Part shown: in pieces, positions 1,691 to 62,684 of the stretch
Layout of the letters: the number at the start of each line of letters is the position of its first letter
Position numbering within the stretch: the stretch's first letter is position 1
NCBI GenBank assembly: GCA_964599915.1
Contig: CAZRHR010000005.1
Span: 3,145 to 67,144 of the forward strand
Source of the DNA: an uncultured Candidatus Competibacteraceae bacterium
Lineage (GTDB): Bacteria; Bacteroidota; Bacteroidia; CAIKAF01
DNA length: 64,000 bases
Direction of reading: 5' to 3'
Translations under genes and position numbers: made by a program
The notes under the pieces: model-generated
Databases searched by the model: none
The model's input: the letters and a program-made list of their open reading frames with translations, nothing else
Told to the model about the DNA's origin: nothing

Positions 1691-3790
1691 TCAAGCAATC
1701 ACAGCGCCTGGCTGCGTAAGATTTTCCGGCGACATAAACACGAGTTTGCCATCGGGTTGTTCCGCCATCAGAATCATGCCTTCGCTTTCAATGCCTCTTA
1801 GTTTTCGTGGCGCTAAATTGATGAGCACACAAACTTGCTTACCTACGATTTCTTCCGGGGTATAATGGGCTGCGATGCCGGAAACCACCGTCCGCTGGTT
1901 TACCCCCACTTCTAGGGTGAGCTTTAATAATTTATCGGCTTTGGGAACACGCTCAGCAGCTAAAATAGTCCCGACCCGTAAATCGATTCGCGCAAAATCT
2001 TCATACGTGATGGTTTCCTTCGAAGGCGCCACTGCCATTTCTTGGTTGGTTTCTGCCGGTGTGTCTTGGGTGGGTGCTGCGGCCTGCGCCATGGCTTCTA
2101 ATTTTTCCATTTGGGCTTGTACGTCGGTGTCTTCGATTTTCTTAAAAAGTATTTCCGGAGTATTTAGGGTGTGTCCCACTTCCCATTCAATGGGGGCATG
2201 CCACCCATAACTGGTTTTAGGGAGGCCCAGCATGGAAAAAATTTTCTTGGATGAAAAAGGTAAATACGGTTGCAATCCTGCACCAAGATGGGCAATCAAG
2301 CGCACCATATCTTCCAGCACCACCCGAACTTGATTTGGGTCGGTGGCAAACCGTTTCCAAGGTTCATTTTCTGTAAGGTACCGGTTCCCAAATCGGGCCA
2401 ATTCCATCACATCCTGTAAGCCTTGTCGGAATTTATACTGGGAAATACTTTGGTCCAGCGCATCGTACATGGCGCCCACCTGTGCCTGTAATTTTTCATC
2501 TGAAAACTGTCCGGTGGATAGCAGTTTTCCTTCAAAATATTTGTGGTGTAAAATCAGTACCCGGTGGATCAGGTTACCTAAAACGGCCACCAATTCTGAG
2601 TTCACACGGGTTTGATAATCTTTCCATGTAAATTCACTGTCGCCGGTTTCCGGTGCAATAGAGGTGAGTACATACCTGAGTTCGTCTTCTCTTTCCGGAA
2701 GATCGGTCAGGTATTCATGTAGCCAAACGGCGTGGTTTCTCGAGGTGGAAATTTTTTGTCCTTCTAAGTTCAAAAATTCATTGGCAGGTACATTGTCCGG
2801 TAAAATAAAGCCACCATGGGCTTTCAGCAGCATGGGGAAAATAATACAATGGAAAACGATGTTGTCTTTGCCAATAAAATGGATGAGTTTGGTGTCCGGA
2901 TCGGTCCACCATTTTTCCCAAGGTTCTCCTTTTTCTTTGGCCCAGGCTTTGGTGGCAGAAATGTAACCAATGGGGGCATCGAGCCACACATAAAGCACTT
3001 TTCCTTCGGCACCAGGTAAAGGAACGGGAACGCCCCAGTCTAAATCGCGGGTCATGGCCCTGGGCCGTAAACCTTCTTTGAGCCAGGCTTGGCATTGTCC
3101 GCGAACATTGGATTTCCAAGTTTCTGCCACATGGGTTTGAATGGGAAATGCCCTTCCGGGAAAATCACCTGTTTCTATCCAAGCTTTAATCCATGCTTCA
3201 TGGTCTTGCATGGGCAAATACCAATGTTTGGTGGGCTTTTTGATGGGCGTAACGCCACTTAAAGTACTTATAGGATTTCCTAAATCATTGGGATTTAGCG
3301 TGGAACCACATTTTTCACATTGGTCTCCATAGGCCGAAGGATGGGCACAGACGGGACAGGTGCCTGTAATGTAGCGATCCGCAAGGAATACATTGAATTC
3401 AGGATCAAAAAACTGGTCGGATACTTCTTCTGTAAAGACGCCTTTTTCGGCCAGTTTTAAGAAGAAATCTGAAGCTGTTTTTTTATGATGTTCGGCGGAG
3501 GTTCGGTCAAATACATCGAAATCAATGCCCAATTGTTTAAAGGCTACTTGATTGATGCCGTGGTATTTGTCAATGATTTCTTGGGGCGTAATGCCTTCTT
3601 TTCTAGCGCGTAGGGTAATGGCTGCGCCATGTTCATCCGAGCCGCAGATAAAGGCCACTTCATGGCCATGAAGCCGTTGGTGACGAACAAAAATATCTGC
3701 AGGCAAATAGGCTCCGGCCAAATGGCCAATATGCAATGGGCCATTGGCATAAGGCAAGGCCGCCGTTATGGTAAAACGCTTGATGGACAT
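1691..3790 (-). CDS. metG: Methionine--tRNA ligase with C-terminal tRNA-binding (Trbp111-like) domain
   Basis: PYANGPLHIGH motif, Zn knuckle CPVC...CEKC, KISTS (KMSKS-like) motif, C-terminal DLRVGTI...ESEGMIL. Confidence 0.98.
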   Translation of the reverse strand: MSIKRFTITAALPYANGPLHIGHLAGAYLPADIFVRHQRLHGHEVAFICGSDEHGAAITLRARKEGITPQEIIDKYHGINQVAFKQLGIDFDVFDRTSAEHHKKTASDFFLKLAEKGVFTEEVSDQFFDPEFNVFLADRYITGTCPVCAHPSAYGDQCEKCGSTLNPNDLGNPISTLSGVTPIKKPTKHWYLPMQDHEAWIKAWIETGDFPGRAFPIQTHVAETWKSNVRGQCQAWLKEGLRPRAMTRDLDWGVPVPLPGAEGKVLYVWLDAPIGYISATKAWAKEKGEPWEKWWTDPDTKLIHFIGKDNIVFHCIIFPMLLKAHGGFILPDNVPANEFLNLEGQKISTSRNHAVWLHEYLTDLPEREDELRYVLTSIAPETGDSEFTWKDYQTRVNSELVAVLGNLIHRVLILHHKYFEGKLLSTGQFSDEKLQAQVGAMYDALDQSISQYKFRQGLQDVMELARFGNRYLTENEPWKRFATDPNQVRVVLEDMVRLIAHLGAGLQPYLPFSSKKIFSMLGLPKTSYGWHAPIEWEVGHTLNTPEILFKKIEDTDVQAQMEKLEAMAQAAAPTQDTPAETNQEMAVAPSKETITYEDFARIDLRVGTILAAERVPKADKLLKLTLEVGVNQRTVVSGIAAHYTPEEIVGKQVCVLINLAPRKLRGIESEGMILMAEQPDGKLVFMSPENLTQPGAVIA

Positions 3791-60456: not shown

Positions 60457-61815
60457 TTACTTAAACTGCCAGCTGACTCCCAGGACGCCTCCCATTTGGA
60501 CGGGGTTGATGCGGGTAAAAGGTGCATGACTTAGGTTGGTGGCTGCGTATCTGGAGATTAGACCAAGGCGTATCTGGATGGGCCAGTGTCGGGGTTGGAA
60601 AGAAGCGCCAACTTGCCATTCTAAATCTAAGCGAAAGGGATTGAGTCCTGCGGTTTGTCCTACTTCGGCCCTTGAAGTCGCTCCGGTGGCCCATACCTCG
60701 TTGCGCGTTTGCACACCGGCACTTCCGCCCACTTGTCCCCAAAGTCCAAGTCTTTGGTTTTTATTTTTCCAAGTAAGCCCAACATGGATTGGAAACTGAA
60801 TCCAACCCATGGTTTGCTCAAGGCTTTGGGTGGTTTCGCCTAGGACGACATCTGTACTGAGCGCCGGACCGTCACTTTCTATGGAATTGAGGTTGGGTTC
60901 TATCCAAAGCCCTCGCAACATGCCCCATTGGGTGAAAATATGGGTTTGTAGGGTATTGGCCGGCAAAAGGTTAAACGGATGGGTGGCGATGTGTTCGCGC
61001 GAGGTACGTACCTCAATGGTCTGGTATTGGATGCCTGTACTCCATTGCCAACCCCAAGGTGAGTTTTTAAATGTTCTTTGACCACGAATCTGCAGTCCAA
61101 GCTGCCATTGTATGGGGTTGGTTTCTGTCCATCCTTGTCCTCCACCAAACGCAGGCAAATAGGGCCCGCCTGTTTGTTCTACCCCGGCCAACTGTCCAAG
61201 GAGTCCTGTTTCTAAACCCAGGTGCCATTGGGTTTTTATTTTGTTTTGGGCTAAGGTTTCTTGTTCGGGGAAGACGTTTTCGAAAATCGCCCATGCAGAG
61301 GCTTGTTCATTCTCATTCAAGAAAAATGCAGGAAAAGGACGGTAAAAATTCAGGGGTTCAATTTGAATGTTGATTGGAGTAACCGGTTCATCTTCTCTGT
61401 TTAAACCGGGAAGTAAGCTCGTCTTTTTACCCAAAACAGACATACTTTGCGAAGGTGCGGTCGTGATGTTCGGTTTTAGCGGGGAGGGTACAATGGTTTT
61501 CGGACGCAATGGCTGCGAAACATGCCCGGTAGAAATTTCAGGGCTAGGGCTATGGGTTTCACGCTGACGTTCTGCGACTTCCAAAGAAGGGACAGAGGTT
61601 TGGCTGGTTGTGCTTCCTAACCACCAACCCAAACCAAAGAGGCAGACAGAAAGTGTGGGGACAAACACCCAGAAAAACCTTCGATTTCGTCTTCTCTTTT
61701 GCTGAAGCAGCAGTTCTTCACTTACCCCTTCCCATACATGGGCAGGCACCCTGACTTCATGGTGCTGGAGTTGGTCTTTGAACCACCGGTCGAAACGAAA
61801 GGCGCCCTTGTTCAT
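60457..61815 (-). CDS. Putative anti-sigma factor with a TM helix, disordered linker and C-terminal OM beta-barrel (Dma/Reo-like)
   Basis: ATGA overlap with the ECF stop; N-terminal FD..FK..L..HE...P..VW..V; RRR followed by a TM helix; S/T/P-rich linker; beta strands ending GVSWQFK. Confidence 0.75.
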   Translation of the reverse strand: MNKGAFRFDRWFKDQLQHHEVRVPAHVWEGVSEELLLQQKRRRNRRFFWVFVPTLSVCLFGLGWWLGSTTSQTSVPSLEVAERQRETHSPSPEISTGHVSQPLRPKTIVPSPLKPNITTAPSQSMSVLGKKTSLLPGLNREDEPVTPINIQIEPLNFYRPFPAFFLNENEQASAWAIFENVFPEQETLAQNKIKTQWHLGLETGLLGQLAGVEQTGGPYLPAFGGGQGWTETNPIQWQLGLQIRGQRTFKNSPWGWQWSTGIQYQTIEVRTSREHIATHPFNLLPANTLQTHIFTQWGMLRGLWIEPNLNSIESDGPALSTDVVLGETTQSLEQTMGWIQFPIHVGLTWKNKNQRLGLWGQVGGSAGVQTRNEVWATGATSRAEVGQTAGLNPFRLDLEWQVGASFQPRHWPIQIRLGLISRYAATNLSHAPFTRINPVQMGGVLGVSWQFK

Positions 61816-62387
61816 GCGTGGTTCCATTTTCCATGTGGTACCAAATCCGGCATCGTTTCCCGAATGCGGTGTTGCAATTGTTGCCGGGCCCTTGCCAGCT
61901 GAGATTTGGAGGTGCCTTCTGAAATGCCGAGCATGTCGGCAATCTCCTTATGTGCGTATCCTTCAATGGCGTAGAGATTAAAGACCATGCGGTAACCATC
62001 GGGCAATTCACGCACCAATTGGAGCATGTCTTCTACATTCAAATAGGCATCGACACTTTCGATGGGTTCCGTTTCAGGAAGGTTGTCATGGAGTTCGGAA
62101 GACCAATGAAGTGGATTTTTCTTACGGAATCTTTCCAGTGCCGTGTGCACCATGATGCGTCTAATCCAGCCTTCAAGGCTTCCTTCACCCCGAAAATCTC
62201 TTAAATGGCTGAATACTTTGACAAATCCATCCTGTAAGTTGTCTTGGGCTTCAGAGACATCTCTTGAAAAACGAAGACATACGGCATACATTTTAGGGGC
62301 AAAAAGGTGATAAAACTTGGCGTAGGCCTTGTGGTCTCCTTTTTTGCAGGCTTCAAGTATCGTATCTATGTGTGCGTTATTTAGCAC
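61812..62387 (-). CDS. ECF-type RNA polymerase sigma factor
   Basis: [47 protein letters not shown] and SKSQLARAR motifs. GTG start at 62387 is inferred. Confidence 0.92.
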
Positions 62388-62601
62388 ATTCTCCCGGTCT
62401 AAAGTGTTTAATGCCAGCCGCCTCTGCGCTGCATGCATTTCCATAGGTTTTACCGTCGCAGCCGCAAACCGGGTCGTATTGCATGGTGCAAATTTTATCC
62501 GGTTGGGGTGTACCCATACAATCAACGGGTGCCTCACGCTGTTTGGATTTACATCCGGTGGCTAGGCAAAAAAGCGCAAATCCGATCAGTGGAAATTTCA
62601 T
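62377..62601 (-). CDS. Kazal-type serine protease inhibitor lipoprotein
   Basis: Lipobox-like LATGC, then C-x9[22 protein letters not shown]...GEC (Kazal consensus). Confidence 0.88.
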
Positions 62602-62648
62602 CGCTAGGTTTTGGCGTTGTTTCACAAAAAACAAGTTCTGCAAGGTAC

Positions 62649-62684
62649 AAAAAAAAGAGGCTGTCTGGTGAAAGACAGCCTCTT
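62649..62684 (-). terminator. Intrinsic terminator of the upstream T9SS cargo gene
   Basis: 12-bp stem AAGAGGCTGTCT/AGACAGCCTCTT with an A-run. Confidence 0.85.

Follow-up and report, generated by a model that had tools for sequence, protein, structure and literature searches.

Organization of the locus

The window analyzed here, a stretch of 64,000 nucleotides from a 2.7-Mb Bacteroidota metagenome-assembled genome, carries on its minus strand three interlocked genes for a small Kazal-domain lipoprotein, an extracytoplasmic function (ECF) sigma factor and an anti-sigma factor that is predicted to reach the outer membrane. The first gene (62377..62601, with the ATG at 62601 and the TAA at 62377) codes for a lipoprotein of 74 amino acids (aa), in which Pfam models recognize a Kazal domain. 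It is followed by the gene of a 191-aa sigma factor (61812..62387, GTG at 62387, TGA at 61812), which was identified with Pfam and NCBIfam and is Das1/EcfO-like; it is putatively ECF21-type, judged by likeness to Das/EcfO, by adjacency and by orthologous group. The third gene (60457..61815) encodes the anti-sigma factor of 452 aa, for which Pfam, AlphaFold2 (AF2) and Foldseek predict N-terminal cytoplasmic helices, a transmembrane helix, a disordered tether of ~120 aa and an outer membrane beta-barrel. Its start in the public gene call is the ATG at 61815, and an in-frame alternative ATG at 61827 would give a protein of 456 aa. The stop codon of the Kazal gene overlaps the GTG of the sigma gene by 11 nt, a start that agrees with the N-termini of the aligned orthologs, and the stop codon of the sigma gene shares 4 nt with the ATG of the anti-sigma gene (ATGA). 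These coordinates and both overlaps had been given in an initial annotation of this DNA and all hold on re-reading the sequence. The overlaps of 11 and 4 nt bind the three genes closely into a single unit.

The unit is preceded by the terminator of an upstream gene for a type IX secretion system (T9SS) cargo protein (62647..62684, minus strand), which was found in the sequence and by a hairpin scan and consists of a 12-bp stem, AAGAGGCTGTCT/AGACAGCCTCTT, and a subsequent T8 run; the strong terminator claimed earlier is thus indeed present. The hairpin itself spans 62684-62655 of the minus strand, lies 48 nt 5' of the Kazal ATG and is kept in a sister species (L112). Between terminator and start codon lies the leader with a putative promoter (62602..62646, minus strand), which contains a degenerate ECF-like motif and a block, TTTTGTGAAACAACGCCA, that is conserved with the sister species. 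Because of the two overlaps, the position of the terminator and the analogy with sister genera, it can be assumed that the Kazal, sigma and anti-sigma genes are co-transcribed in the window's genome.

The Kazal-domain lipoprotein

The 74-aa protein matches the Pfam families Kazal_1 (PF00050; E=3.5e-8, 33.8 bits with a cut-off of 21) and Kazal_2 (PF07648; E=3.6e-7, 30.6 bits with a cut-off of 22.8). It begins with a signal peptide and the lipobox LATG|C17, and according to a scan of the window's own genome it is the single Kazal copy there. The AF2 model reaches a predicted local distance difference test (pLDDT) score of >90 for residues 30-74, with 91-94 over residues 30-70, and the top Foldseek matches in the PDB are all Kazal inhibitors, with template modeling (TM) scores, related to the target, of 0.80-0.85. 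Sequence models and predicted fold therefore agree on the Kazal identity that the initial annotation had proposed. Closest in fold are the non-classical structures 4HGU and 1AN1, with a root-mean-square deviation (rmsd) of 1.0 A over 37-38 residues. Moreover, a profile built from 47 Kazal relatives matches solved inhibitors with E values of 1e-9 to 1e-18, among them ovomucoid domains, LDTI, rhodniin, the Anemonia elastase inhibitor, silk protease inhibitor 2 and CrSPI-1; the same profile also matches agrin, follistatin and RECK.

In the profile alignment, the residues C38-T39-M40-Q41-Y42 align with CTLEY of the ovomucoid third domain (ACTLEYRPLCG; OMTKY3), which places Met40 at P1, as had been predicted from the sequence of the loop. 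Invariant in all 47 relatives are Y42, P44, V45, C46, G47, T52, Y53, N55, C57, and C72, of which N55 corresponds to the loop-stabilizing Asn33 of ovomucoid. Among the Kazal copies that are linked to the sigma factor, the aligned P2-P1-P1' residues are TMQ, PAN, PAV, PQI, and IQI. Classical Kazal domains have six cysteines, bonded as C1-C5, C2-C4, and C3-C6, and known non-classical Kazal domains deviate from this pattern. The domain of the window's protein also contains six cysteines, with the classical C2, C3, C4, and C6 present and invariant and two extra, invariant or near-invariant cysteines at residues 28 and 48 (C28 and C48, the latter in a CGC motif), which could form a replacement disulfide. 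A sister form with eight cysteines keeps the C1-C5 pair and shows an LDTI-like CxC...C-x3-C pattern.

The residues after the lipidated cysteine, CKSKQRE, are basic and include no acidic ones. In surface lipoproteins of Bacteroidota, carboxylate residues at this place are the export mark (PMC9308784). Judged by the lack of acidic export residues after Cys17, the Kazal lipoprotein more likely faces the periplasm than the outside, and these sorting residues disfavor a role against proteases from outside the cell.

The sigma factor and the anti-sigma factor

The sigma factor comprises regions 2 and 4 only and matches the Pfam families Sigma70_r2 (6.3e-13), r4_2 (7.3e-17), and Sigma70_ECF (4.5e-9) as well as the NCBIfam model TIGR02937 (91.7 bits, cut-off 42.9). 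Its orthologs across the order share 41-57% identity, and a relative in an unrelated lineage (locus L046 = G058) is 46% identical to it. A search with the L046 sigma factor yields hits at E ≤ 1e-45 in 166 of 301 genomes drawn from across the class, which fits the published finding that Dma1 is present in nearly all Bacteroidota (PMC10927553). One of the sigma orthologs (G147:C17:11212-11736) lies inside an open frame of 861 aa, which presumably encodes a fusion of sigma and Dma of the kind published as Dma3.

The anti-sigma factor matches the Pfam family OMP_b-brl_2 (PF13568) with E=4.8e-8 and 33.7 bits (cut-off 27). In the AF2 model, helices are found at residues 6-17 and 25-68, the pLDDT stays <50 for residues 71-190, and a barrel with a pLDDT of ~90 extends from 194 to 451. 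The N-terminal 45 residues with the predicted helix 6-17 are putatively sigma-binding, and a hydrophobic segment within the predicted helix 25-68, FFWVFVPTLSVCLFGLGWWLG, is the single predicted transmembrane part. The motif D-x-x-F-[RK]-x-x-L...PP-x-x-VW...KRR is conserved in alignments across the order and also in L046, and an N-terminal motif of ~30 residues (IDxxF..L....PP..VW..I...L) is tandem-duplicated in the anti-sigma factors of some genera (L113, L114, L115, L119, L120). The tether, residues 71-190, is rich in Pro, Ser, and Thr, cannot be aligned and varies in length among the orthologs. A word-based homolog search with the anti-sigma factor returned itself and one relative of 86% identity, and nothing else. 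For the barrel, Foldseek lists OmpA, OmpX, OmpW, NspA, and Pla (E 1e-6 to 1e-4), and the C-terminus, ...SWQFK, can be described as an aromatic ending. The omptin-like matches Pla and OmpT were not read as a sign of protease activity, since they share 6-10% identity with the barrel and the scores of other small barrels are just as good.

The Dma family was described in 2024 in Bacteroides (PMC10927553) and has four defining parts, which are, from the N- to the C-terminus, a sigma-binding region of ~40 residues, a transmembrane helix, a long disordered tether and a beta-barrel (PMC13088901, PMC10927553). For Dma1, fractionation or tagging served to show that the protein spans both membranes (PMC10927553). 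Known pairs with ECF21 sigma factors are Das1-Dma1 (BT_4720/BT_4721) and Das2-Dma2 of Bacteroides thetaiotaomicron (PMC10927553, PMC13088901) and EcfO-Reo of B. fragilis and Phocaeicola vulgatus (PMC9308784, PMC13088901, PMC13114119). The predicted four-part architecture of the window's anti-sigma factor matches this definition, and by architecture the pair is a Das/Dma-type module. The initial annotation had regarded the entire arrangement as undescribed, which does not apply to a sigma factor with an envelope-spanning anti-sigma factor, published as Das/Dma (EcfO/Reo), but does apply to the addition of the Kazal gene: no paper that links a Kazal domain with an ECF sigma/anti-sigma pair in bacteria was found in the literature searched. 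New here is thus the Kazal gene as the first gene of a sigma/Dma operon, whereas the sigma/Dma pair itself is already known.

Conservation of the linkage between Kazal and sigma genes

The order to which the window's genome belongs is represented by 27 species genomes in 7 genera. A Kazal gene is present in 23 of them, usually as a single copy, and in 13 of the 20 loci fetched, which belong to four genera, the sigma gene directly follows it. Wherever all three genes are readable their order is Kazal-sigma-Dma, and the Kazal and sigma genes overlap by up to 14 nt or lie up to 12 nt apart, which leaves no room for a separate promoter between them. The adjacency of the three genes, to which the initial annotation had tied its proposal, is therefore conserved in 4/7 genera of the order according to this gene-neighborhood survey. 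Elsewhere in the order the first position is filled differently. In two genera, the sigma operon is headed by an unrelated gene for a protein of 210-236 aa without a match in Pfam, and in one genus as well as in two species of another the operon has no first gene and starts with a leader of 135-145 nt; no Kazal remnant was found in this leader in the two Kazal-less species. In two sister genera, the gene of the eight-cysteine Kazal form overlaps the stop codon of a D-2-hydroxyacid dehydrogenase gene after rsmG (L006, L007, L009, L012, L013, L014, L019), so that the gene of a cytoplasmic enzyme is coupled to that of a lipoprotein in an unusual but conserved way.

Across the phylum, small Kazal lipoproteins are encoded at >587 confirmed loci, and the earlier statement that Kazal domains are uncommon in bacteria fails for Bacteroidota. 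The contexts were counted for the best 80 of these >587 loci. Two of the 80 lie beside this sigma gene, one in the same order and one in the unrelated lineage (L046), and a single further locus has any ECF sigma gene within 5 kb. At L046 the gene order is sigma-Dma-Kazal, with a Dma-type protein and a 97-nt gap before the Kazal gene, and the Kazal lipoprotein encoded there is of the six-cysteine form with Met at P1. The idea that the six-cysteine subtype is generally linked to the sigma factor was discarded, as this subtype makes up 47 of the 85 domains counted at these 80 loci, nearly all of them away from the sigma gene. Likewise, a protease gene as a constant neighbor of the Kazal gene was rejected, since the contexts are mixed and an M28 aminopeptidase gene is adjacent in 5 loci only. 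Some Saprospiraceae and Marinoscillum have multi-Kazal proteins or tandem arrays (L066 5111-5800; L069 5001-5740; L038; L090), among them one Saprospiraceae open reading frame of 277 aa that matches the Kazal query at five places and one locus with three tandem lipoprotein genes.

A conserved promoter motif upstream of the operon

In the loci of the order, the motif GCAAC-N17-C[AG]TC[TA], usually with T or AT before it and A-rich sequence after it, closely precedes whichever gene comes first in the operon. In three genera it is found 10-15 nt before the Kazal ATG, in two genera it precedes the alternative first gene, and where a Kazal gene is absent it stands before the sigma gene. The same motif precedes the sigma ortholog in at least 22 of 30 class-level loci as well as the operon at L046. 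It has the form of an ECF promoter, with AAC in the -35 element and CGT or CAT in the -10 element, and judged by this pattern GCAAC-N17-CRTCT is evidently the promoter through which sigma factors of this family regulate their own operon. In the sister genera, the Kazal gene has thus been inserted between promoter and sigma gene. The corresponding region of the window reads GCAGAAC (62641-62635), N18, CGCCA (62616-62612), and that of the sister species TCGACC-N16-CGCCA; both have in common the block TTTTGT[GA]AA[AT][CA]AACGCCA at a distance of 10 nt from the ATG. Despite this divergence of the promoter in the window's genus, the sigma factor has the same region 4.2 as in the other genera.

A regulon scan of the 27 order genomes with the exact pattern gave a ~2.5-fold enrichment over a reversed-pattern control, and the candidates, which are pattern matches only, show no clear protease theme. 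Exact matches to this pattern, GCAACC-N16-CRTCT, occur 7-60 nt before several genes of sister genomes (L125, L132, L133, L138, L128, L137), which may belong to the regulon; among them are genes for T9SS cargo (an M43 metallopeptidase and Ig/DUF7619 proteins with Por_Secre_tail), for a GT4 glycosyltransferase and for a lipoprotein that resembles aspartyl proteases. In the sister genera g4 and g5, the motif also occurs in back-to-back copies (L104 2233-2311; L107 5229-5317; L108 2151-2239), one before the operon of the 210-236-aa gene, sigma and Dma, and the other before a divergent gene for an LVIVD-repeat protein of 461-520 aa. At a further locus (L142, G077:C11), the motif at 3235 on the minus strand lies ~1.2 kb upstream of the sigma gene, which suggests another kind of first gene.

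Genes downstream of the operon

Two co-directional genes follow the anti-sigma gene with gaps of 44-48 nt and are possible extra members of the operon in the window's genus only. They encode a membrane protein of 72 aa (60412-60194, minus strand) and a rhodanese-thioredoxin lipoprotein (60145-59429, minus strand). The pair also follows the anti-sigma gene in the sister species (L112), and not in other genera. The 72-aa protein carries a GC-x4-GC motif (VGCTPEGC). That a periplasmic thiol-redox pair adjoins the gene of a disulfide-rich lipoprotein may or may not be a coincidence.

A proposed serine-protease inhibitor as probable output of an envelope stress module

The explanation that we favor, and which we hold to be reasonably probable, is that the locus encodes a Das/Dma-type stress module with the Kazal lipoprotein as a sigma-dependent output that inhibits serine proteases of the periplasm. 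In such a module, the anti-sigma factor would use its N-terminus to keep the ECF sigma factor at the inner membrane, and its disordered tether would cross the periplasm to the beta-barrel in the outer membrane. A disturbance of the envelope would lead to proteolysis of the anti-sigma factor and to release of the sigma factor, which would then transcribe its own operon and a small regulon. With its gene between the autoregulated promoter and the sigma gene, the Kazal lipoprotein would be made whenever the system fires. It would sit on the periplasmic face of a membrane, inhibit S1/S8 serine proteases in the canonical (Laskowski-type) manner and protect periplasmic proteins under envelope stress, possibly including the exposed Dma tether. 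Going by domain and loop, it is most likely that the Kazal protein inhibits serine proteases, and candidate endogenous targets in the window's genome are 8 subtilases and an HtrA-like protease. By analogy, it most likely fills the slot that is held by NigD lipoproteins in Bacteroidales; Pfam finds no NigD domain in the window's first gene, but a Kazal domain instead. We argue that the Kazal gene is an output gene rather than a core or obligatory part of the signaling, since the first-gene slot is variable (Kazal, the 210-236-aa protein, nothing, or NigD) and since Kazal is absent from most Das/Dma operons.

Several observations weigh against this explanation. C1 and C5 are absent in the window's Kazal domain and in every sigma-linked copy, the variation of the P2-P1-P1' residues among these copies speaks against a single conserved target, and no inhibition assay for this bacterial Kazal family was found in the literature searched. 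Furthermore, the operon occurs without a Kazal gene in 3/7 genera and in two species of a fourth, none of the 30 loci from other families of the class has a Kazal gene within 1.5 kb of the sigma gene, and 78 of the 80 best Kazal loci lie elsewhere than at this sigma gene, so that the linkage is not general. The promoter of the window's genus adds to these points. A position weight matrix (PWM) built from 16 sites, in which true sites score 17-42 bits, gives a score below 0 upstream of the window's Kazal gene and nothing above 20 bits and no convincing site across the window's whole genome, and neither genome of the genus (G000 and G013) contains the exact pattern. The ECF-type promoter that the initial annotation had expected in 62602-62650 is thus unrecognizable there apart from the degenerate GCAGAAC-N18-CGCCA, and as the consensus is absent in the window's genus, sigma-dependent transcription there rests on analogy.

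The initial annotation went further and proposed a protease-sensing feedback loop. In a version moved to the periplasm, a serine protease there would cut the Dma tether as site-1 protease, and the induced Kazal protein would block this protease, protect the envelope and end the signal. Such a loop would suit an inhibitor-like gene that comes first in the operon in four genera and adjoins the module in a different gene order in a second lineage, a tether that is predicted to be disordered over ~120 residues, and the finding that Dma1 of B. thetaiotaomicron shows growth-phase-dependent proteolytic fragments (PMC10927553). We nevertheless regard it as unlikely, since the Kazal gene is dispensable for the module, as seen from the Kazal-less loci of class and order, the reactive loop varies among the linked copies, and no protease could be tied to Dma cleavage in this analysis. 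Quite doubtful to us is also the notion that the Kazal protein is a dedicated inhibitor, directed at the very serine protease by which Dma-type anti-sigma factors are cleaved in their periplasmic tether. If it were true, the module would be a self-limiting, protease-gated envelope sensor, and the Kazal-bearing lineages would reveal which class of enzyme acts as site-1 protease throughout the Dma family, namely S1/S8, e.g., an HtrA/DegS-like protease.

Two further readings dispense with the inhibitor or with its tie to the sigma factor. According to the first one, the Kazal protein would be a small protein, rich in disulfides, that binds for instance to the Dma barrel or tether, comparable to RseB on RseA, or a NigD-like lipoprotein for envelope remodeling. 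It draws on agrin, follistatin, and RECK, which are matched by the profile and use Kazal-like modules as non-inhibitory binding domains, on the loss of one classical disulfide and the drift of P1 to Ala or Gln in linked copies, and on the non-inhibitor lipoproteins that occupy the slot in Bacteroidales. However, the loop C-T/P-x-x-Y-[DE]-P-V-C-G and the loop-stabilizing Asn are invariant, and the best fold matches are true inhibitors that lack this same disulfide or have it shifted, GmSPI-2 (1.0 A, 50% identity) and LDTI, so that we consider a non-inhibitory role very unlikely. It is hardly more plausible in our view that the Kazal gene is a mere passenger, which happened to end up behind a suitable promoter and is functionally unconnected with the sigma factor. 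A passenger would not be expected to remain intact, with all structural residues, in four genera with sigma factors that are only ~50-57% identical, to be the only gene of its kind in the window's genome and in most sister genomes, and to be linked a second time in a different gene order (L046). On the other hand, most Kazal lipoprotein genes of the phylum stand in unrelated contexts (after rsmG/2-hydroxyacid dehydrogenase, beside lysS, an M28 peptidase gene, and others), and two species of one genus have lost the Kazal gene, yet kept the operon.

The placement of the Kazal gene is a lineage-specific arrangement that hints at a role of proteases in the switch. A Kazal gene that is kept in several genera and separately linked in another lineage offers a concrete lead on serine proteases in Dma cleavage, for which both the activating signal and the cleaving proteases are given as unknown (PMC10927553, Discussion). 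Moreover, it draws attention to a family of small Kazal lipoproteins that is widespread in Bacteroidota and uncharacterized, and the class-wide conservation of GCAAC-N17-CRTCT allows regulon prediction in uncultured members.

Comparison with known systems

A functional comparison, without homology, can be drawn with the RpoE-RseA-RseB/DegS-RseP pathway of Escherichia coli, in which a membrane anti-sigma factor also undergoes regulated proteolysis and an accessory periplasmic protein encoded in the operon modulates the cleavage. There, however, RseB is no protease inhibitor and RseA stops short of the outer membrane.

As a protein, the Kazal lipoprotein resembles the MEROPS family I1 inhibitors 4HGU/2M5X (Galleria silk protease inhibitor 2), 1AN1/2KMO (LDTI), 1Y1B/1Y1C (Anemonia elastase inhibitor), and the ovomucoid third domain. 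It has in common with them the loop Cys-Thr-P1-x-Tyr-x-Pro-Val-Cys-Gly and the subsequent Thr-Tyr-x-Asn-x-Cys at the start of the helix. Unlike these inhibitors it is bacterial and, going by its lipobox, lipid-anchored, and it has two extra cysteines, one right after the CG (C-G-C) and one ~10 residues ahead of C2. The sigma-linked copies are without the C1-C5 pair, which the sister form with eight cysteines retains.

The closest system is Das/Dma (EcfO/Reo). The published sigma factors autoregulate their own operon and strongly induce a few lipoprotein genes (PMC10927553, PMC9308784, PMC13088901, PMC13114119). One such gene adjoins the sigma gene in each case, namely NigD2/BT_4719 beside das1 and the nigD gene M0N98_03762 beside ecfO (PMC10927553, PMC9308784, PMC13088901, PMC13114119). 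The inducers are outer membrane stresses, e.g., antibacterial toxins or inhibition of BamA (PMC9308784, PMC13088901, PMC13114119). The window's locus differs from these systems in that the accompanying lipoprotein is a 74-aa Kazal protein instead of a NigD-like one; the Kazal_2 model has no match in 14 control genomes, B. thetaiotaomicron included. Furthermore, its barrel domain is larger, with ~260 aa and 8-10 predicted strands, and the consensus promoter is degenerate in the window's genus. What it shares with Das/Dma is an ECF sigma gene that is translationally coupled to the gene of an anti-sigma factor with one transmembrane helix, a long disordered tether and a terminal barrel, a presumed autoregulation of the operon, a lipoprotein gene in the same unit and the restriction to Bacteroidota.

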